From: Mobula hypostoma | Lineage: Eukaryota | Assembly (NCBI RefSeq): GCF_963921235.1 | Contig: NC_086108.1 | Coordinates: 87,670,001 to 87,734,000, forward strand | Length of the DNA stretch: 64,000 nucleotides | Reading direction: 5' to 3' | In this document: piece by piece, positions 3,166-55,325 of the stretch | Layout of the letters: each line of letters opens with the position of its first letter | How positions within the stretch are numbered: the first letter of the stretch is position 1 | Notes under the pieces: generated by a model | Seen by the model: the letters and a program-made list of their open reading frames with translations, nothing else | Database searches by the model: none | Told to the model about the DNA's origin: nothing | Translations under genes and position numbers: made by a program

Positions 3166-3266
3166 CTGTCCTGCAGAAGGGTTTCGGCCGAAAATATCGA
3201 CTGTACTTTTTTTCCCATAGAAGCTACCAGACCTGCTGAGTTCCCTTAGCATTTTGTGTGTGTTGT
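3166..3266 (+). mobile_element. Penelope-like terminal repeat fragment with degenerate hammerhead motif
   Basis: gtc-CTGCAGA-agggtttcggcc-gaaaatatc-gactgt...cctgctgagttcc..agcattttgtgtgtgttg, homologous to 30021-30117. Confidence 0.7.
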
Positions 3267-3409: not shown

Positions 3410-3680
3410 GAGCCCCATACAGAATGCTGAAGGAACTCAGCAGATTGGGCAGCATCTAGGGAAGGTTATGAATGCTTTGGGCTGCGACCCTTCATCAGGG
3501 TTGGAAAGGACAGGGGGCAGAATTGGCCTCTTCCTTTCCAGTCCTGTTGAAGGGTCTCAGCCCAAAACATTGGTTGTTCATTTCCCTCAATAGATGCTGC
3601 CTGACCCACTAAGTTCCTCCAGTATCTTGTGAGTATTGCTCAAGATTTCCAGCAACTGCATAATCTGTGTCTCCTTTACA
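3410..3680. mobile_element. Inverted pair of Penelope-like terminal repeats (fold-back element)
   Basis: Left arm about 3410-3510 (minus) and right arm 3533-3680 (plus) are reverse complements; each has CTG(A/T)TGA-agggtc..gccc. Confidence 0.72.
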
Positions 3681-5749: not shown

Positions 5750-7354
5750 CAAACCCCATTTCCAGAAAAGTTGGGATATTTTCCAAAATGCAATAAAAAC
5801 AAAAATCTGTGATAAGTTAATTCACGTGAACTTTTAGTTAACTGACAAAAGTACAAAGAAAAGATTTTTCAATAGTTTTACTGACCAACTTAACTGTATT
5901 ATGTAAATATACACAAATTTAGAATTTGATGGCTGCAACACACTCAACAAAAGTTGGGACAGAGTTAAAATAAGATTGAAAAGTGCACAGAATATTCAAG
6001 TAACACCGGTTTTGAAGACTCCACATTAAGCAGGCTAATTGGTAGCAGGTGAGGTATCATGACTGGGTATAAAAGTAGCGTCCATCAAAGGCTCAGTCTT
6101 TGCAAGCAAGGATGGGTCGTGGCTCACCCCTTTGTGCCAGAATTCGTGAGAGAATTGTTAGTCAGTTCAGAAGGTACGTTTCTCAATGCAAGATTGCAGA
6201 GAATTTAGGTCTTTCAATATCTACAGTACATAATATTGTGAAAAGATTCAGAGAATTCAGAGACATCTCAGTGCGTAAAGGGCAAGGTCGGAAACCACTG
6301 TTGAATGCCCGTAATCTTCGAGCCCCCAGGCGGCACTGCCTAAGAAACCGTCATGCTACTGTGACAATTATAGCCACTTAGGTTCGGGAGTACTTCGGAA
6401 AACCACTGTCACTCAACACAGTCCGTCGCTGCATCCAGAAATGCAACTTGAAACTGTACTACGCAAGGAGAAAGCCATACATCAACTCTATGCAGAAACG
6501 CCGGCGAGTTCTCTGGGCCCGAGCTCATCTCAGATGGACCGAAAGACTGTGGAACCATGTACTGTGGTCAGATGAGTCCATATTTCAACTAGTTTTCAGA
6601 AAAAACGGGCGTCGAGTTCTCCGTGCCAAAGATGAAAACGACCATCCAGATTGTTATCAGCAAAAGGTGCAAAAGCCAGCATCTGTGATGGTATGGGGGT
6701 GCATCAGTGCCCACGGCATGGGTGAGTTGCATGTATGTGAAGGTACCATTGACTCTGAGGCGTATATTAGGATTTGAGAGAGACATATGTTGCCATCAAG
6801 GCAACGTCTCTTCCCGGGACGTCCATGCTTATTTCAGCAGGACAATGCCAGACTACATTCTGCACGGGCTACAACAGCATGGCTTTGTAGACACAAAGTG
6901 CGTGTGCTTGACCGGCCTGCTGCCAGTCCAGATCTATCTCCTATTGAAAATGTATGGCGCATCATGAAGAGGAGAATCAGGCAACGGAGACCACGGACTG
7001 TTGAGCAGCTGAAGTCTTATATCAAGTAAGAATGGACAAAATTTCCAATTGCAAATCTACTACAATTAGTATCCTCAGTTCCAAAACGATTAAAAAGTGT
7101 TATTAAAAGGAAAGGTGATGTAACACAATGGTAAACATGCCTCTGTCCTAACTTTCGTTGAGTGTGTTGCAGCCATCAAATTCTAAATTTGTGTATGTTT
7201 ACAAAATACAATTAAGTTGGTCAGTAAAACTATTGAAAATCTTTTCTTTCTACTTTCGTCAGTTAAATAAAGGTTCACGTGAATTAACATATCACAGATT
7301 TTTGTTTTTATTGCATTTTGGAAAATATCCCAACCTTTCTGGAAATGGGGTTTG
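5750..7354 (+). mobile_element. Full-length Tc1-like DNA transposon (IR/DR type, 1605 bp)
   Basis: TA TSD at 5748-49 and 7355-56; about 214-bp TIRs (5750-5964, 7141-7354) starting CAAACCCCATTTCCAGAAA, each with repeated aaagttggga. Confidence 0.96.
6112..7134 (+). pseudogene. Tc1 transposase (340 codons, DD34E) with three in-frame stops
   Basis: ORFs 6100, 6448 and 6787 share one frame; WSDES, VMVWGC, FQQDNA, SPDLSPIEN; 34 residues between second D and E; stops at 6379, 6775, 7027. Confidence 0.95.
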
Positions 7355-9569: not shown

Positions 9570-10470
9570 TGAAGCACAAATTTAAAAATAAACAAGTCAT
9601 ACAGGGAGGGAGATGATGATATTCTAGAGCATATTATGATTAAAGAGGAGATATTAAATGTCTTAGCCATAAAGATGGATAAGCACAAGAGATTCTGCAG
9701 AAGCTGGAAATCAAGAGGAACACACAAAATGCTGGAGGAACTCAGCAGGTCAGGCAGCATTTATGAAGGGGAATAAACAGTCGACATATCAGGGCAAGAC
9801 CCTGACTGGAAGGGAAGGGAATGAAGCCAGAATATGTAGGAAGGGAGGAGGGGAAGGAGTACAAGTCGGCAGGTGATAGGTGCAGCCTATCACCTGCTGC
9901 TTAGATAGGTGAGGCAGAAGGTGGAGTTCCATTGTGCATAAAAATGGATAAATCTCCTTGGTTTGAAGAGATGTATCCCACGCTACTACAGGAGGAGATA
10001 GCTGGGACGCTGACAGACTTTTAAATCATCATTGGCACAGGTACCAATGACTGGAGGACAGCAAATATAGTTTCTTTAGTCAAGAAGAACAGCATTGATA
10101 AGCCAGGTAGTTACAAGGCAGTGAATCTTACATTACTGGTAAAGAAGCAAGTTCTGAAGGTTTTGAGGGACATGATCAGAGTCACATCATCAGTGTGGCT
10201 TTGTTGTGACGTCCTATCTGACTACTCAAAATTTTTCAAAGGTGCTACTATATAGATGAAAGCAATGTGATTGATGGAATTTAGCTTGGTATTTGATGAG
10301 GTCCTGCATGCAAGTCTAGAACCACTGAGATCAAAAGCAAATTAGATTCCAAACTGGTTTAGTAGTAGCAGACACAGTGACAGTAGAGGGTTACTTTTGT
10401 GATTGGAAACCTGTGATCAATGGCATATCACAGGGATCAGTACTGGTATATTTAAGGTTTGTAGCATACA
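9570..10470 (+). mobile_element. Old CR1 RT fragment interrupted by a Penelope-like repeat (9683-9925, minus)
   Basis: GISQGSVL RT motif; tggataa duplicated around the insert. Confidence 0.65.
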
Positions 10471-27556: not shown

Positions 27557-28096
27557 CTGAGGAAGGCGTTAGAGGTGTGAAATACATTAAGCAACACAAA
27601 AGAGACTAAAAAATACTGACTAGCTGGCAGAGCATATTAGAATAAGTGCAAGAAAAGAAGTATATTTGTATTTATGTAGCAATGTTGAAAGTACATTTTA
27701 AAGTACTTTGAAGGGAGATATTGTTATAATCTAGAAAATAGGGTAGCTGTTTTTTGTACAAATTCCTAACCATGTGATAAAAACTAGATAATCTGCTTCT
27801 TCCCCCCAAACTAAAATGGAGGAATATGAATTGGCAGGGTGAATGGCAACACTCCTGATTCATTGAGATCTTTTGTGGTCCAGCTGGGTATTATGTCACC
27901 CAAAAGACTGGTGGCACGTCCAAGATGCACCGTTCACTCAGCACTGCTGCATAAAGTGGCTCGAAAATCTCAGAGCTCAAGTCTCAAAAATATTCAATCT
28001 AAACTTAAAATAACAGCTTTCAGACCGAGAGGAGGAGTCATAACCCCACTTCTAAGTAAACAAAGCAGCAATCATTGCACAGAGAGCAACCCTTAC

Positions 28097-28453
28097 CTGT
28101 ATCAGGTTGTACTTTCTCCTTCTCTGAATCAAATAATGACATGTCATTCCCTGTTGCCAGAATCGGAGAAGGGAGTGTTGTAGGCTGAGTGGACTTGTTT
28201 TCTTGTCCTGGGGATAGAGAGTCTATCTTGATAGTGTTATTCTTTGAAATACTCATTGCCATTTGGTCAGCTTCACTATCAAGTCCACCAAAACAACCCA
28301 CTTCAGGCATTTTTATTGCCAAGGAGGCACTAAATCCTTTCAAGTGCTCACTCAAAGAGGACTCCCTCATTTCAACTTGTAGCAGTTCTTCATTTCCTAC
28401 ACCAGCACTCTTTGTACTCTCATCAGTCTCAGGGGTCATCAGTTGCTGCATAT
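28097..28453 (-). CDS. SZT2: SZT2 exon (long, S/T/E-rich): (D)MQQLMTPETDEST...EKVQPDT
   Basis: aag|AT..ACA G|gtaagg; open in ORF 28038..28487; 357 nt, phase 1 to 1; FS|D junction as in SZT2. Confidence 0.83.
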
Positions 28454-29393
28454 CTTCGTAGAAATAGAGAGCACAGAAAGAAAACACATTTTTAAAAAAA
28501 TGTCACAAAAATATTAACTCCCTTATTCCATCACTAGTTAATGATTAATATAATAATTATTATTTTCAACTTCAGTGTTAATAGAGGTATATATGCCAGG
28601 AAAAGTCCAACAATTGTGCTTATGACCAATCTGATCGAATTTCATTTTCAAGTCATTTGATCTTTACAATTTTCATTTTGAGCAAATTAAGCATCAGAAA
28701 TATTTTCTTTATATCCAGCCTTCTTAAATTATTGTTTTGATTCACTTTGTCACCATAGTTTCCAGACGAGTATGTCCACCCTGCTTACTAAAATTTAGGG
28801 AAAAGTCCTGAGAATGTCTGGGCATAATGCCTGACATGAAGAAACCAGCCTGCTATGTTCATCTCTGACAACTGTGCTACAAGATGCCAACAAAGAATGG
28901 TACCAAGCCACTTCAGATAGAGATCGGTGCCTCTAGGTAAAGATCCACACACATAACATTATGTTAGGCTCCAGGCAAATGCAAACAAAAAGCTTCCATC
29001 AACTGCAGTTACTTCAGGTTTTTAAAGACAGGACTTTTAAATAAAAGTTGTACCTCAAACTTTTACACAAGTTATTTTGTGCAGCTCCTAGGGTGGCCTC
29101 TCATGGGACATCTTACCTCATTGCCACAGAGCAGTAAACTCTGCTCCCACAATCTGTGACAATATTTCGCCTTATTAAATTTGCTGTTCATTTAGGAAAC
29201 AGGATATTTATAATGAACACTTTCAACAGATAGCATTCACATTCTTTAAGATAAAAATATAGTAGTTGGAAACAAAACGCAAACAAATAATCACACTAAC
29301 ATGAGAAAATCTGCAGATGCTGGAAATTCAAGCAACACACACAAAATGCTGGTGGAACACAGCAGGCCCAGGCAGCATCTATAGGAAGAAGAA

Positions 29394-29431
29394 CAGTTGA
29401 CGTTTCGGGTCAAGACCCCTCAGCAGGACTA
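29394..29431 (-). ncRNA. Minimal type I hammerhead ribozyme motif (one core substitution)
   Basis: uaguc-CUGCUGA-G-GGGUCUUGACCC-GAAAC-GUC-aacug. Confidence 0.65.
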
Positions 29432-30021
29432 ACGGAAAAAAGAGATAGTAAGAGATTTGAAAGTGGGGCTCAGCAGGACTAATGGAAAAAAGAGATAGTA
29501 AGAAATTTGAAAGTGGGGGGGGGAGGGGGAGGACCAGAAATGATAGGAGAAGACAGGAGGAGGAGGGATGAAGCCAAGACCTGGGAAGTTGATTGGCGAA
29601 AGGGATACAAAGCTGGAGAAAGGGGAGTATCATGGGACTGAAGGACTTGGAAGAAAGAAAGGGGGAGGGAAGCACCAGAGGAAGATGGAGAACAGGCAAG
29701 GAGTTATTGTGGTGGGGGTGGGGGAAGGAGGGGGGAGAAATAAATAGATAGGGATGGGATAAGAAGGGGAGGAGGGGCATTAACAGAAGTTAAAGAAATC
29801 AATGCTAATGCCATCAGGTTGGAGGCTACCCAGACGGAATATAAGGTGTTGTTCCTCCAACCTGAGTGTGGCTTCATCTCAATAATAGAGGAGGCCATGG
29901 ATTGACATATCGGAATGGGAATAGGACGTGGAATTAAAATGTGTGGCCACCGGGAGATCCGGCTTCCTCTGGTGGACAGAGTGTACGTGTTAACAAATCT
30001 CTTACTATTTCTTTTTTCCGT

Positions 30022-30060
30022 TAATCCTGACGAAGGGTCTTGACCCAAAACATCGACTGT
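30022..30060 (+). ncRNA. Minimal type I hammerhead ribozyme motif (CpG-decayed)
   Basis: uaauc-CUGACGA-A-GGGUCUUGACCC-AAAAC-AUC-gacug. Confidence 0.6.
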
Positions 30061-30288
30061 TCTTCTTCCTATAGATGCTGTCTGGCTTGCTGTGTTCCAC
30101 CAGCATTTTGTGTGTATCAACTTACAATGAACCTTCTAAAACACTACAAAGGAACTATAGCTTTGAAAGCCATTATGTATAACTGAACGAATGGAACGCA
30201 TGAAATGAATTCTAACAAGAAACAGCAAGCTAACTTGCCTCTTCAAGCAACATGTGCCAAAAAATAAAGATACATTGATAAAACTTAC

Positions 30289-30424
30289 CAGAAAAGGTGG
30301 CTGGCAAAAAGATGAGCAGGATTTGTTGTGCATTCACAAATCTGGTATAACATCTCCACTGAGGAATGGTCTCATTTTCAACTGAAACTACATTGTCCTC
30401 AGTCATATCAGCATTCCCAACACT
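30289..30424 (-). CDS. SZT2: SZT2 exon: SVGNADMTEDNVVSVENETIPQWRCYTRFVNAQQILLIFLPATFS
   Basis: tag|AGT..TCT G|gtaagt; PQWRCY and FLPATFS motifs; 136 nt, phase 0 to 1. Confidence 0.93.
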
Positions 30425-30709
30425 CTAATCAAGAGAAGCATATTTTTAATGCAAAGCATTAAGTAAGAATTTCAAATATTTCATTCTGGAGTAAGCTTTC
30501 TGAAAATGCATTTTATTACAAGAACTGCCACATATTTTGTTCATTATCAGGAAGTATACCCACTAGCAAGACTCAAAAATTTTTTGGAACTTTTTGGTGG
30601 GCTACATTAATCGCAAGAGGTCATTCACTGGTGAAGCTGTGCGGAGCTTAAAAAGATGTAGGAGCCTTTTAGAACTTTTTGGTGGGTGACAATTACCGCA
30701 ATCTTTTTA

Positions 30710-32490
30710 AGAATACGGCAGGGAGCAATAAAAAGAAACGAGGTGTTTAAGCAGAGCAGCCATTGTAGGAGTGCGCCAGTGTTAGAGTGGTCAGGCTTCT
30801 GCTCAACAAGCTTGGGCCAGGACAGGCATAGGCTTAATCTTAAGATTAAGAAGTTACAGGTATAACAAGTGCAGGCAGAATGATAGTTCAGCTCCTCCTG
30901 TGAGATGTGGGATTTCAGGTCACCTAACTCAGGGGTCCCCAACATTTTTTGCACTGCGGACCGGTTTAATATTGACATATTCTTGCGGACCGGCCGACCC
31001 AGGGGGTGGAAGGGTGCAGGGTTGCCAACAGCGAAGAGTAGCAGTCAAGTACGTTGTTTACCCAAAGACTACAATGATCATGAAGCCTTGCGTGGGCACC
31101 ATTGCGCATGCGTTACCTGCGCATACGTGTACCTGCTGCTTTTTTTCTGAAAATTGTTTTTGGTGATTCTGTTCGGGGGGGGGTGTTAATCACGACCAGA
31201 CTATAGGTGATAATTGGCTAATACACTCAATTTTGTTTCTAAAAGGGTTTATCTAACAAATTTAATATTAAACACGGCGCATATTTTCCTCGCATGAATA
31301 TAGTGATAAGTCAATTATCAGGGGAGGACAGGGAGCTTGAAGTAAGTATTGAACGAACTTCCAGTAGAAGTGGCAGAAGCAGATTCGATATTACCATTTA
31401 AAGAAAAATTGGATAGGTATATGGACAGGAAAGGAATGGAGGGTTGTGGGCTGAGTGCAGGTTGGTGGGACTAGGTGAGAGTAGCGTTCGGCACGGACTA
31501 GAAGGGCAGAGATGGCCTGTTTCCGTGCTGTAATTGTTATATGGTTATATGTCAATAGCATCATAACATTTTAAGTAACGTTTGTATATTAAACACACAG
31601 CACATATTTTCCCCGTATGAACATATAAAATCATTGCAACACACCAATATCGCTGAATCAGTGGGAGCCCTGGGCTTGTTTCCCTGCAACGAGACAGCCC
31701 CATCAAGGGGTGATGGGAGACAGTGATACTTGAAGGGGGTTCCTTATGTCCAGTCTATTCCGCAACTTAGTTTTATTTGCATTCATTGCAGAAAACTCCG
31801 CTTCGCAGAGATACGATGTTGGAAATGGAAGCAACGTTTTCAGTGCTTTCGTGGCTATCTCAGGATATTCAGCCTTGACTTTGATCCAGAATGCCGGCAG
31901 AGATGTTATGTCAAACATACTTCTCAGCCCACCGTAATTTGCAAACTTAAAGAGTTGATCTCCTTCCCGCGCTGACACGGATGACGCGCGGGTAATGACC
32001 TGGCATGCGTAATGGCTCAACAGTGGCCGTGACAGGGGATGAGAAAAGGTGCAGCTGACTCATATCAGCAAATCATATTGCTTCCTCGCAGCCCGGTGGT
32101 TGGGGACCGCTGACCTAACTGACTCCCTGATGACTACATCTGCTCCTGACTGATAAGGTCAAGGAACTGGAGCTGGATGTACTCAGGACCATCAAGGCGG
32201 TTGAAAGCCTCATATGTAAGACTTTTACAGATGTGGTCACCCAGAGTGCAGGCTCCAGATTGCAGGTAGGTGAGCACCATGAGAAATAAGGGGAGTACGT
32301 AGTCAGTGCAGTGTTCCCCTATGGCCATTCCACTCAGCAAACAAATATACCCCTTTGGATACTCCTGGGGGATGACCTATCAGGGCACAGCAGAAGCAGC
32401 TAGGCCAGTGGCAGAGCGATAGTGCTAGGGGCTTCGACAGTTAGGGGGACAGCAGCAGATTCTGCGGCCGCACGACAATCCAGGATGGTT
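30710..32490 (+). mobile_element. CR1 5' UTR/ORF1 fragment, split by the hAT element
   Basis: SSCEMWDFRSPN|..LPDDYIC zinc-finger-like ORF1 start rejoins across the hAT; GDS-like region homologous to 51750-51830. Confidence 0.7.
30930..32112 (-). mobile_element. Non-autonomous hAT (Buster/Charlie-type) transposon, 1183 bp
   Basis: Perfect 8-bp TSD ACCTAACT (30922-29, 32113-20); TIR CAG(G/C)GGTCCCCAAC; hAT dimerization domain remnant FWIKVKAEYPEIATKALKTLLPFPTSYLCEAEFS (31703-31960). Confidence 0.95.
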
Positions 32491-40259: not shown

Positions 40260-40552
40260 CATTTCTGATTATCTTATTTCCTTTCATCAGGTCACCACCA
40301 GCCTCTAGTTTCTTCCCAGCTCCTTACTTCACTCACTCCCCTCCTGGTTTCACCTATCACCTTGCAGTTCTTCCTCCCCTCCTCCAACCCTCTTACTCTG
40401 ACTCATGTTTTTCCTCCAGTCCTGATGAAGGGTCACAGCTTGAGACATTGGCTGTACTCTTTCCCATAGATGCCGCCTGGCCTGCTGAGCTCCTCCAGCA
40501 TTTTGTGTGTGTTGCTCGGATTTCCAGCACCTACAGATTTTCTCTTGTTCGT
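40260..40552 (+). mobile_element. Penelope-like terminal repeat with degenerate hammerhead (40416-40456)
   Basis: ccagtc-CTGATGA-agggtcacagctt-gagac-att-ggctg, followed by tagatgccgcctggcctgctgagctcctccagcattttgtgtgt. Confidence 0.75.
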
Positions 40553-42882: not shown

Positions 42883-44718
42883 CGGTGCCACAACAATAAC
42901 CTCTGACTCAATGTCAGCAAGACAAAGGAGTTGATTATTGACTATAAGAGGAGGAAACCAGAGGTCCATGAGCCAGTAATCATCGGGGATCAGAGGTGAA
43001 GAGGGTCAGCAATTTAAAACTCCTTGGAGTTAACATTTTTGGGGATCTGTTCTGGGTCCAGCACACAAGTACCAATACAAAGAAAGCATGGCAGCACCTC
43101 TACTTTCCTAGGAGTTTGTGAAGACTCGGCATATCATCTAAAACTTTGACAAACTTCTATAGATATGAGGTGGAGAGTATACTGATTGGTTGCATCAGGG
43201 CCTGGTATGGAAACACCAATACCCGTGAATGAAAAAGCCTACAAAAACTAGTGGATACAGCCCAGTTCATCACATGTAAAGTCTTTCTCACCACTAAGCA
43301 CATCTACAAGGAGTGTTGTTGCATCCCCCTTCACCCAGGGCATGCTCTCTTCTCCCTGCTGCTATCAGGAAAGAGGTACAGGACCTAAGGGCCTATACCA
43401 CCAAGTTCAGGAAAAGTTACTACTCCTCAAACTTCATGCTCTTCAACCAGAAGAGATAACTTCATTCAACCAACACTGAACTGTTCCTACAACCTATGAA
43501 CTCATTTTCAATGGCCCTTCATCTCATTTTCTACATATTTATTGCTTATTATTATTGTCTTTTTTTTCCTTTTTTTGTATTTTGTCTTTTGCATATTGTT
43601 TATCCATCTTGTGTATGGTTCCTCAATGATTCTATTGGGTTTTTTTTGTATTTACTGTGAACAAAGATGGCACCAGCGAACAATGCAACCAAAGGCAACA
43701 TCTATCAGTTTACAAAACTACTTCTCATACTTCTTTTTACAAATATGATTCTGCTACTAAGCTTTTACGTGTGATTCAAACTTGTGATTTACACTTTGAC
43801 GGTGCTTTTGGGCTGATTGAGCGATCTGGCGCTTTCCTGTCTCAGAGGGACATCAGTGAGGTTTCGAGCAGAGTATGAGGCCTAGAGCCCAAGGAGCCTG
43901 GAGAGGGAGCGCAAGTCCATGATCGACTCCATTTCTTGCCAAATTTGCCAATTGAAACGTCAACACACACAAATGCTGGAAGAACTCAGTCGGCCACGCA
44001 GCATTTTGTGTGCGTTGCTTGGGTTTCCAGCATCTGCGGATTTTCTCTTTTTTGTGATTAAAATATCAAGCAAGATTGGAATCAACGAGGATGAGAGTGG
44101 AAGGCGAGCAGGTGTTCAGCACCATCTGCTTGTGTTTGACCAGTCTCTCCCACTCGCTCGCTGCTGCCAGAAGAAGGTGTCTGCGCTTGACTGGTCTCTC
44201 TCTTGATCTCTCTCTATGCTGCTGGAGAACGAGGCTGGAGTCTTGGGTTTTTGGCAAGGTTTAATTGATGCGCGTTGTGGATTGGACTTGGCAGTTCAAG
44301 TTAGGAATGCATTTCTGCTTACTTCTTTATTTATTGCTATTTTGTGCACTTTTGATTGGGGTAGACTGGCTCTCCAGCCTGCACTCAACAAACAACACAG
44401 TACTAAAGTGAACTGAACTAAACTGAACATTCCTAGACTGTTTCAGTGACTGTGGTTTGATGTTTCATATTCTGTGGTTTCACTTGTTTTTTGCTACTCG
44501 CAAGATTTTTTTGTTTGCCCTTTGTGTGTTTGATATTTTCTTTGAACAGGTTCCGTGGTGTTTCTTTGTTTCGTGGCTGGCTGTGGGAAGATGAAGCTCA
44601 GGCTTGTATACTGCATACGTAATAAATGTACTTTGTACTTTGAATGCTCACAAGAAAATGAATCTCAGGGTTTTATATGGTGACATATGTACTTCAATAA
44701 TAAATTTACTTTGAACTT
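42883..44718 (+). mobile_element. Rex-Babar 3' part (42883-43659, resumes 44644-44718)
   Basis: [26 protein letters not shown]; tail resumes atgctcacaagaaaatgaatctcaggg. Confidence 0.85.
43660..44643 (+). mobile_element. About 1-kb non-coding retroposon with AAGATGGC 5' end and Rex-like 3' tail
   Basis: Nested in the Rex 3' UTR between tgtga|a and ttga|atgc; no RT-like ORF. Confidence 0.6.
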
Positions 44719-51529: not shown

Positions 51530-54500
51530 TTGATAACCAGGCTACAGGGGTCAGAAAACTGGAGAGAGAGGGAAGGAAAATGCCCGAATAATGAAGAGCA
51601 CACCTGTGGCTGTCCCACTCAGCAACAAATATCTTGTTCTGGGTGCTGTTGAGGGGGATGACCTGACGGGGGACGCCCACAGTGACCGGGTCTCTGGCAC
51701 TGAGCCTGATGCTGTTGTGCAGGAGAGAAGGAGGGAGAAGAGGAATGCGGTAGTCATAGGGGATTCCATAGTCAGGGGAACGGACAGGAGATTCTGTGAG
51801 CCTGATAGAAATACTCGCATGGTGTGTTGCCTCCCAGGTGCCAGAGTACGGGATCTCTCAGATCAGGTCGTGAATATTCTGAAGGGGGAGGGTGAGCAGC
51901 CACGTTGGTACCAATGACATAGATAGGACAAAGGAGGAGGTCCTGAAGAGAGATTTCAAGGAGTTAGGAAGGAAACTGAGAAGCAGGACCTCTAGGTTAG
52001 TAATCTCGGGATTGCTACCTGTGCCACGTGCTAGTGAGGACAAGAATAGTAGGATCAGGCAGATGAATGCGTGGCTGAGAGACTGGTGCAGGGGGCAGGG
52101 CTTCTGATTCTTAGATAATTGGGATCTCTTCTGGGGGAAGTATGACCTGTTCAAAAAGGACGGGTTACGCCTGAACCCGAAGGGGACCAATATCCTGGCG
52201 GGAAAGTTTAATAGAGCTGTTAGGGAGGGTTTAAGCTAATTTGGCAGGGGGACGGGAACCAGAATGACAGAACGGAGGAAGGGGAAAACAGAAATAAATC
52301 TAAGATAGTGAGCAGTAAAGATGTCAGGAAAGACAGGCAGGTGATGGGGCAAATTTGTAGCCATTGAGATGAGTTGCAGTGCAATAAAGTTGCAGTGAAA
52401 TCAAAGCGAAAAGTACCAAATACTGGTCTTAAGGTGTTATACTTAAATGCATGCAACATAAGGAAAAAGGTGGATGATCTTGTTGTACAGCTACAGATTG
52501 GCAGGTATGATATTGTGGCCAACACTGAGACGTGGCTAAAGGATGCATGTCTCTGGGAGCTGAACGTCCAAGGATACACGGTGTATCGGAAGGATAGGAA
52601 GGTAGGCAGAGGGGGAGGCGTGGTTTTATTGGTAAGAGATGATATTAAATCATTAGAAAGAGGTGATATAGGATCGGAAGGTGCAGAATCTTTATGGATT
52701 GAGCTAAGAAATAGCAGGGGTAAAAGGACCCTGATGGCAGTTATTTATAGGCCTCCAAACAGCTGCAGGGATGTGGACTACAAATTACAACAGGAAATAG
52801 AAAAAGCTTGTCAGAAGGGCAGTGTTATGATAATTGCGGGGGATTTTAACATGCGAGTGGATTGGGAAAATCAGGCCGGCACTGGATCTCGAGAGAGAAT
52901 TTGTAGAATGTCTGCGAGATGGCTTTTTAGAACAGCTTGTTGTTGAGCCCACTAGGGGATCGGCTGTACTGGATTGGGTATTGTTTAATGAACCGGAAGT
53001 GATTAGAGAGATTGAGGTGAAGGAACCCTTAGGAGTCAGTGATCATAACATGATTGAGTTCACCGGGAAATTTGAAAAAGAGAAGCTGAAATCTGATGTG
53101 TCGGTATTTCAGTGGAGTAAAGGAAATTACAGTGGCATGAGAGAGGAACTGGCCAAAGTTGACTGGAAAGGGACACTGGCGGAAAGACAGCAGAGCAGCA
53201 GTGGCTGGAGTTTATGCGAGAAGTGAGGAAGGTGCAAGACAGGTATATTCCAAAAAAGAAGAAATTTTCAAATGAAAAAGGGATGCAACCATGACAAGAA
53301 AAGAGACCCTTGACAAAAGAAGTCAAAGCCAAAGTTAAAGCAATGGACAGGGCATACAAGGAAGCAAAAGTTAGTGGGAAGACAGAGGATTGGGAAGTTT
53401 TTAAAACCTTACAAAAGGAAACTAAGAAGGTCAGTAAGAGGGAAAAGATTAACTATGCAAGGAAGCTAGCAATTAATATCAAAGAGGATACTAAAAGCTT
53501 TTTCAAGTATATAAAGAGTAAAAGACAGGTGAGAGTAGATATAGGACCAATAGAAAATGATGCTGGAGAAATTGTAATGGGAGATAAGGAGATGGCGGAG
53601 GAACTGAACGAGTATTTTGCATCAGTCTTCACTGAGGAAGACATCAGCAGTATACCGGACACTCAAGGGTGACGGGGAAGAGAAGTGTGCGCAGTCACAA
53701 TTACGACAGAGCAAGTACTCAGGAAGCTGAATAGTCTAAAGGTAGATAAATCTCCCGGACCAGATGGAATGCACCCACGTGTTCTGAAGGAAGTAGCTGT
53801 GGAGATTGCGGAGGCATTAGCGATGATCTTTCAAAAGTTGATAGATTCTGGTATGGTTCTGGAGGACTGGAAAATTGCAAATGTCACTCCACTATTTAAG
53901 AAGGGGGCAAGGAAGCAAAAAGGAAATTATAGACCTGTTAGCTTGACATCGGTTGTTGGGAAGTTGTTGGAGTCAATTGTCAAGGATAAGGTTACAGAGT
54001 ACCTGGAGGCATATGACAAGACAGACAGAACTCAGCATGGATTCCTTAAAGGAAAATCCTGCCTGACAAACCTATTACAATTTTTTGAGGAAATTATCAG
54101 TAGGCTAGACAAGGGAGATGCAGTGGATGTTGTATATTTGGATTGTCAGAAGGCCTTTGACAAGATGCCACACATGAGGCTACTTAACAAGATAAGAGCC
54201 CATGGAATTACGGGAAAGTTACATACATGGATAGAGTGTTGGCTGATTGGCAGGAAACAGAGAGTGGGAATAAAGGGATCCTATTCTGGTTGGCTGCCGG
54301 TTACCAGTGGTGTTCCACAGGGGTCCGTGTTGGGGCCGCTTCTTTTTACATTGTACATCAACGATTTGGATTATGGAATAGATGGCTTTGTGGCTAAGTT
54401 TGCTGACGATACGAAGATAGGTGGAGGGGCCAGTAGTGCTGAGGAAACAGAGAGTCTGCAGAGAGACTTGGATAGATTGGAAGAATGGGCAAAAAAGTGG

Positions 54501-55325
54501 CAAATGAAATACAATGATGGAAAGTGTATGGTTATGCACTTTGGCAGAAGAAATAAACGGGCAGACTATTAATTAAATGGGGAAAGAATTCAAAGTTCTG
54601 AGATGCACCAGGACTTGGGAGTCCTTGTACAGGATACCCTTAAGGTTAACCTCCAGGTTGAGTCAGTAGTGAAGAAGGCGAATGCAATGTTGGCATTCAT
54701 TTCTAGAGGAATAGAGTATAGGAGCAGGGATGTGATGTTGAGGCTCTATAAGGCACTGGTGAGACCTCACTTGGAGTACTCTGGGCAGTTTTGGTCTCTT
54801 TATTTAAGAAAGGATGTGCTGACGTTGGAGAGGGTACAGAGAAGAGTCACTAGAATGATTCGGGGAATGAGAGGGTTAACATATGAGGAACGTTTGTCCG
54901 CTCTTGGACTGTATTCCTTGGAGTTTAGAAGAATGAGGGGAGACTTCATAGAAACATTTCGAATGTTGAAAGGCATGGACAGAGTGGATGTGGCAAAGTT
55001 GTTTCCCATGATGGGGGAGTCCAGTACGAGAGGGCATGACTTAAGGATTGACGGGCGCCCATTCAGAACAGAAATGCGAAGAAATTTTTTTAGTCAGAGG
55101 GTGGTGAATCTGTGGAATTTGTTGCCACGGGCAGCAGTGGAGGCCAAGTCATTGGGTGTATTTAAGGCAGAGACTGATAGGTATCTGAGTAGCCAGGACA
55201 TCAAAGGTTATGGTGAGAAGGTGGGGGAGTGGGACTAAATGGGAGAATGGGTCACCTCATGATAAAATGGTGGAGCAGACTTGATGGGCCGAATGGCCGA
55301 CTTCTGCTCCTTTGTTTTATGGTCT
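51530..55325 (+). mobile_element. Near full-length CR1 LINE (partial SGNH-esterase ORF1, APE+RT ORF2, 3' UTR), inactivated
   Basis: ORF1 VIGDSIVRG and [43 protein letters not shown]; frameshifts near 52890 and 53175, stops at 53670 and 54570. Confidence 0.96.

Follow-up and report, generated by a model that had tools for sequence, protein, structure and literature searches.

Inverted minimal hammerhead motifs, both damaged, in a 5'-truncated Penelope-like insertion within SZT2 of Mobula hypostoma

The window is the whole stretch of Mobula hypostoma DNA that was analysed, 64,000 nucleotides of contig NC_086108.1 (positions 87,670,001 to 87,734,000). Its host gene at the feature under study is SZT2 on the minus strand, as the flanking exons match human SZT2, with E values of 2e-06 and 1.7e-10 to the KICSTOR SZT2 chains. 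The exon upstream of the host intron occupies 30289-30426 (minus strand, end at about 30424-30426), and its donor site lies about 170 bases from an insertion at 29298-30115, whose ends are placed to within about 3 bases. This insertion is a 5'-truncated Penelope-like element (PLE) with two arms arranged head-to-head, 3' ends outward. The main arm (29298-29991, minus strand, sense in the SZT2 pre-mRNA) contains in order the end of an ORF, a pyrimidine-rich stretch, a hammerhead motif, the downstream terminal repeat and a tail of about 35 bases (29298-29332, minus strand). Relatives from the same genome align to this arm over query positions 3-696 at about 74-82%. The inverted terminal-repeat arm (29994-30115, plus strand) covers about 60 bases ahead of its predicted cut site and about 61 beyond it. 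The tail is found in the main arm only, which has a long end at about +101 from its predicted cut site, and is absent from the inverted arm, which has a short end at about +61. The segments 29337-29459 and 29994-30115 are inverted repeats with 91% identity. They share one base that is absent from all 29 close relatives, suggesting that both arms came from one template lineage. A candidate target-site duplication (left 29290-29301 on the plus strand, right 30116-30126) is weak, matching in 10 of 12 columns with one gap, and its score is not significant since 10% of random 24-mers from the window equal it.

The main arm also contains a tandem duplication of two 50-base units, 96% alike (29419-29518, minus strand), which repeats the 5' strand of stem I and the half-core CUGCUGAG. 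A genome search with a pattern capable of finding its junction returned no second site. With 4% divergence, the duplication could date from the insertion itself or shortly afterwards; if it does, the cores of the two arms were already different by that time. In three of four sequencing runs, contigs of about 12.3-12.4 kb cover just 30289-30426 and no other letters of the window. Contigs of all four runs cover the repeat very deeply, from other copies; they were used as assembled and are silent on RNA ends and on expression or editing of the window copy.

Several other long frames lie in the window. A long acidic frame at 28041-28502 (minus), on the SZT2 strand between two matched exons, is probably a lineage-extended exon. 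Of three further frames, one resembles a CR1-type LINE (51537-55235, plus), one a Tc1/mariner transposase (6382-6774, plus) and one the end of a hAT-type transposase (31706-32059, minus).

The main arm retains the C-terminal 69 codons of a GIY-YIG endonuclease (29783-29989, minus), interrupted by one TGA at 29881-29879, with the GIY and YIG motifs themselves cut off. Read with X at the stop, this peptide is identical at 52 of 69 positions to the C-terminus of a 397-amino acid frame in a relative from the same genome, in agreement with the first-pass annotation, which had proposed a Penelope-like element of cartilaginous fish with a GIY-YIG C-terminus between its two motifs. The top matches of the 397-amino acid frame are Mobula and Hypanus proteins at 63-86%, with sharks lower, and many of its matches carry PF00078, PF26215 and PF01541. 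Profile comparison of the window's own peptide gave less, as neither its halves nor three partial frames from relatives had a relevant Pfam match. An own-genome protein search yielded 227,277 candidates at first look; 150 were scored, and 20 loci were chosen for their long frames. Three of the 20 contain full-length 1043-amino acid frames with reverse transcriptase (RT) and GIY-YIG regions; the Pfam matches on these frames, to RVT_1 in 2/3 (E 4e-05 to 6e-05) and to GIY-YIG in 3/3 (E 0.001-0.008), are below the curated cut-offs. In several ray gene models, those for divergent protein kinase domain 1C, chitinase domain-containing protein 1 and mucin-2 isoforms, long stretches of the element ORF are present, either through exonization or as an annotation artefact.

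Four full-length copies (L043, L044, L048 and L050) have a unit length of 3513-3516 bases, and all four have direct repeats (pseudo-LTRs) of 197-1600 bases that are 99-100% identical. A hammerhead motif with an intact core is located in each repeat. The family thus has the single ORF, RT followed by a C-terminal GIY-YIG domain, of endonuclease-containing (EN+) PLEs, of which the window keeps the last 69 codons. The L043 protein carries DKG, GxxMG and YxDD motifs, a CX4CxxC linker, and cysteines between its GIY- and YIG-like motifs (VIY-C-xx-C-xx-C-..-YIG). Neptune elements are distinguished by a CX2-5CxxC linker between RT and endonuclease together with two cysteines between GIY and YIG, and Nematis has the same linker (PMC8557442). 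By this criterion the linker and the inter-motif cysteines point to Neptune or Nematis rather than Penelope/Poseidon, and the element in the window is Neptune-type as judged by protein motifs.

Both hammerhead motifs read letter for letter as first reported. The sense copy lies at 29394-29431 on the minus strand (C3 at 29426, H17 at 29399), which is the SZT2 strand as had been claimed, and the inverted copy at 30022-30060 on the plus strand (C3 at 30027, H17 at 30054). The minimal type I core, CUGAnGA, GAAA and UH with stems I and II, is present in the family and in neither window copy. The window's class has the extra base after A9, the G10.1-C11.1 pair and the palindromic 15.2-16.2 segment. 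The minus copy has A6C (29423), an A to G change of the extra nucleotide (29419), a neutral C7U, and a G to A change of the first base past the cut site (29398), which leaves a C-A mismatch in the core-proximal pair of stem I. A is found at position 6 in 27 of 29 close relatives of this copy. The plus copy has G12A (30047), G16.2A (30052), which breaks the ACGU palindrome, and a G to A change in the 5' strand of stem I (30024), which leaves an A-C mismatch. G12A, G16.2A, C7U and the +1 change are CpG transitions. A search with hammerhead models had been proposed; Rfam, scanned over 28000-31500 at E values up to 10, gave a hammerhead match to neither copy and two chance snoRNA matches. Both window motifs are predicted to be inactive.

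Two other accounts of the lesions were rejected. One-strand A-to-G editing would have left a scar that is absent here, since just 1 of 11 differences between the arms is A to G on the sense strand. CUGCUGAG is not a mark of a subfamily in the window's lineage, as the pattern has five genome matches, including two in the window. The A6C change of the minus copy is likely private; it may also have come by conversion from an older A6C subfamily.

The first-pass annotation had read the lesions as complementary, with a consensus that restores every catalytic nucleotide. Every core position does survive in one copy or the other, and source copies have the full core; the annotation had missed the stem I mismatch in each copy. 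The functional reading, in which the two copies together rebuild one active ribozyme that cuts or regulates the SZT2 pre-mRNA, could draw on that intact set of positions, on the place of the sense copy inside the pre-mRNA about 860 bases from the upstream SZT2 exon, and on cofolding, in which the stem II strands of two molecules are predicted to be able to pair. However, the copies are on opposite strands, and one RNA would hold one motif and its antisense, with 117 arm-to-arm pairs in the predicted pre-mRNA fold and a stem II probability of about 0. We infer from PMC4209133 that the published dimer takes CUGAnGA and GAAA, and with them A6 and G12, from one and the same copy. A half-and-half chimera of the two copies would have two mismatches in the four core-proximal pairs of stem I. 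The lesions are also the commonest changes of the family, G12A occurring in 8/34 and G16.2A in 7/34 older random copies, and the SZT2 exon is joined into the contigs of about 12 kb without the insertion. Functional complementation is scarcely credible. Since separately decaying copies are usually struck at different places, lesions that look complementary are the default expectation, and the damage in the two mirror-image copies likely reflects independent decay. Following insertion, the two arms would have accumulated changes separately, chiefly at CpG sites. Pairing between the arms in the SZT2 pre-mRNA would enclose the sense motif in a predicted hairpin of 117 bp. The window copy is likely neutral and inert.

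The motif is very abundant in the genome. An exact 28-letter core pattern with C11.1 and GUC has 11,748 matches and the corresponding pattern with U11.1 has 50,388, giving 62,136 core-intact exact motifs, and the backwards controls of both patterns have 0. The motif is therefore more than a chance match, and a minimal type I hammerhead in the terminal repeat, with an inverted arm, is supported as first proposed. To estimate frequency in an unselected sample, 60 stretches of 10 kb (600 kb) from 8 large contigs were examined, and these contain 71 terminal-repeat matches, which extrapolates to about 400,000 end fragments genome-wide. Forty-five of the 71 span the motif, and the 11 core bases and H17 are intact in 31/45. 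A core no more conserved than its flanks would have counted against the proposed ribozyme, and this was not the case. Among 41 older matches, non-CpG core columns are 93% uniform compared with 84% for the 3' flank, while CpG columns are 63-81% uniform; among 30 young matches the contrast is small, 99% versus 97%. Because the comparison pools several subfamilies, the contrast reflects conservation among source lineages and not selection on inserted copies.

Distant relatives were examined in 80 metagenome loci encoding proteins with 33-50% amino acid identity. A minimal-hammerhead descriptor matched the coding strand in 20/80 loci (12 distinct motifs), compared with 4 matches on the other strand and 0-1 in shuffles; the descriptor requires the core, and the informative parts are strand, place and stem changes. 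In an alignment of 12 natural motifs, 92% of cells pair and 6/8 pairs change on both sides, compared with 8-44% paired in slid controls; as the rows are kin-related and were hand-picked from the ray and metagenome sets, this is support rather than a probability. G5, G8, G12, A13, A14, A15.1-U16.1 and H17 are kept between the ray and distant invertebrate-type relatives while the stems covary. By analogy with published motifs, the ancestral RNA likely self-cleaved, but minimal PLE hammerheads cleave weakly, and one of them depends on the element's protein and can be inactivated without loss of insertion in vitro. Folding predictions place intact monomers, such as that at L043:7437-7474, in a misfolded rod that pairs the core GACG with the CGUC of the cut site. 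In such folding models the rod could keep monomers off, and A6C could weaken it.

Core variants differ among lineages. In an older lineage with 7,969 pattern matches, the 100 matches listed divide at position 6 into 30 with C, 64 with A, 4 with G and 2 with T (counted by eye). In the window's lineage, with 64,090 pattern matches, position 6 is A in 99, G in 1 and C in none of 100 matches listed, and the difference in C between the two lineages is significant (Fisher p 1e-10, 100 listed each). When 18 C6 and 18 A6 copies of the older lineage were compared, C6 was linked to distinct letters of the 3' flank, with several columns at p < 0.001, although the C6 rows were partly selected for. By this linkage A6C marks an amplified subfamily. 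Loci of the older A6C subfamily are L143-L172. In the class that is both youngest and largest (L043-L062), position 11.1 is U, which closes stem II as G-U, or as A-U in a shifted register; this class includes full-length copies with near-identical direct repeats. The family has likely been active recently.

On another reading, source elements retain the motif for its structure or for protein binding, or as a point where reverse transcription stops or folds back; it would then hardly cleave, and cleavage would be unneeded for spread. Consistent with such a role, the A6C subfamily, about 30% among the matches listed of 7,969, was amplified together with linked flank variants, and in another hammerhead A6C makes cleavage more than 10,000-fold slower in Mg2+ than in Mn2+ (PMC7151607). 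The largest young class has the U11.1 change, copies continue for about 100 bases beyond the cut site, and ribozyme-dead mutants of the anole element insert normally in vitro (PMC11167929). Among young arms, 9/59 start 21-40 bases before the cut site compared with 1-4 in other 20-base bins, but the cases in this cluster of 5' starts are few and their loci biased. Against it, the core bases and H17 are kept to distant relatives while the stems covary, as catalysis would conserve them, and the most expanded lineage has A6 in 99 among 100 matches listed. On this evidence a role in which the motif hardly cleaves is unlikely, though far from negligible.

Copy ends were located relative to the predicted cut site. 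They cluster at about +68 (20 of 71 random matches) and about +102 (26 of 71), with 25 others. Among loci of the same genome there are 55 head-to-head pairs compared with 29 tail-to-tail pairs and 25 same-strand neighbours; the head-to-head loci were mostly picked by motif or protein search. Twenty-six head-to-head pairs could be classified, and 25 of these are long/short, one is long/long and none is short/short (binomial p 4e-07 against one half), the other 29 of 55, including the window's own pair, having at least one unclassable end. Near-duplications of 12-20 bases are present at the outer ends of 24/55 pairs, as an uncontrolled count. In very short inverted pairs (L073:2400-2609, L101:5730-5958 and L157), the junction is a fold-back just upstream of stem I of the ribozyme.

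The frequency of head-to-head pairs and the near-duplications at their outer ends could also suggest that the palindromic unit of 820 bases is mobile in its own right and moves in one piece, as a non-autonomous retrozyme or fold-back element. This is very unlikely. Arm lengths and junctions vary by locus, the 50-base duplication junction of the window's unit occurs once, and retrozymes are tandem direct repeats rather than inverted pairs (PMC7229834; bioRxiv 2026.07.22.740005). A non-LTR retrozyme, made of short non-coding tandem direct repeats each with a hammerhead, was rejected as the motifs are inverted and lie on either side of coding remnants. The 50-base duplication was rejected as a retrozyme-like repeat since it holds half a core only.

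The feature is very probably a decayed, 5'-truncated Penelope-like insertion whose terminal repeat carries a known minimal hammerhead, with both motifs damaged. The mechanism proposed for its origin is drawn from PMC8557442, PMC11167929 and the end counts. In tandem source transcripts, the ACGU palindrome would hold two motifs together, and these would cleave weakly after GUC, probably aided by protein. The template for insertion would be uncut at its 3' motif, as copies extend about 100 bases beyond the motif. The element protein would nick both target strands 12-16 bases apart, and reverse transcription would be primed from both nicks, with starts about 68 and about 102 bases past the ribozyme cut site. 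Head-to-head joining of the two truncated cDNAs would then leave an inverted arm and a one-sided tail.

A more speculative proposal joins the core variants to the copy ends. The lineage may have spread to thousands of copies while its core was A6C, and a later phase, with G-U as the closing pair of stem II, would have brought more than 50,000; cleavage would then be dispensable or the cores rescued by protein or Mn2+. Each inverted insertion would also use both RT starts once, in which case a single protein dimer on a single RNA would prime the two target strands in an asymmetric way. We offer this combined proposal tentatively, with less than even confidence.

Most features of the ray family have counterparts in known systems. 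The minimal hammerheads of PLEs (Cervera and De la Pena 2014, PMC4209133), which in fishes are on record from Poseidon, Neptune and Xena elements, are likewise type I, with one extra base between A9 and stem II, a G10.1-C11.1 pair, a palindromic 15.2-16.2 segment without loop 3, and a stem I of 4-5 pairs. As in the ray, they occur once per direct repeat about 3.5 kb apart, as opposite-strand pairs 100-700 bases apart, and as thousands of dispersed single motifs (PMC4209133). Cartilaginous fish, to which the ray belongs, are absent from the text and supplements of that paper that were searched. The A6C and U11.1 subfamilies were not found in those parts, which describe a U3-A8 core variant instead. 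The ray's 62,136 exact motifs compare with 4,000 in coelacanth and 9,000 in Xenopus (PMC4209133), and canonical retrozymes reach 120,000 copies in the axolotl (PMC7229834); thus the ray count is high but no record.

Neptune insertions described by Craig et al. 2021 (PMC8557442) resemble those of the ray in 5' truncation, partial tandems and an inverted 5'-truncated copy adjoining the 5' end, in a 30-40-base tail that is often at one end only, and in a C-terminal GIY-YIG domain with CCHH and a CX2-5CxxC linker. The one-sided tail is described qualitatively by Craig et al. and is counted in the ray (25/26). The main text of that paper makes no mention of sharks.

The anole Poseidon element PAc (Frangieh et al. 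2024, PMC11167929) is also similar. In PAc, as proposed for the ray, the tail is set by two internal RT starts, cutting and extension involve both strands of the target, and uncut RNA is the template; the hammerhead of PAc, like that of the ray, is near the pLTR-ORF junction. The PAc ribozyme of Anolis carolinensis requires protein for cutting, and insertion in vitro proceeds without an active ribozyme (PMC11167929). However, PAc belongs to Penelope/Poseidon and lacks the linker Zn finger, whereas the ray element has the linker. The PAc ORF starts inside the ribozyme, while the first likely start codon of the ray element is about 140 bases past the cut site. For PAc the start site in vitro is the same on both strands (PMC11167929), whereas the ray genomic pairs are nearly always long/short. 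Phage Bcep176 has a natural A6C hammerhead (Naghdi et al. 2020, PMC7151607), with the same CUGC-N-GA change as the window's minus copy and the older subfamily. The Bcep176 ribozyme was tested in vitro and prefers Mn2+, whereas the ray motifs, which are without stem III, are known from sequence. One chondrichthyan genome was included in a study of tandem retrozymes (bioRxiv 2026.07.22.740005).

The motif, the inverted arm and the one-sided tail are all already published (PMC4209133, PMC8557442, PMC11167929). The window copy is an ordinary broken end-piece of a very abundant element and is of little importance in itself. The family is of modest use, with young full-length members, a number of core variants that arose naturally, and insertion junctions in the tens of thousands. 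It makes testable both the role of the hammerhead in the Penelope cycle and the origin of the inverted arm and one-sided tail. A literature search found no specific report of PLE hammerheads in rays or other chondrichthyans. A 2017 study by Lunse et al., which reportedly deals with dimeric PLE hammerheads, or its supplements may list shark, ray or A6C variants.

The ray genome holds at least 62,000 core-intact motifs, many of them presumably in introns. The window itself contains at least five older terminal-repeat fragments of the same family (3168-3265, 3540-3660, 9688-9803, 40376-40552 and 43994-44055). Damaged hammerhead motifs were observed in older fragments at 3471-3498 and 3544-3571.
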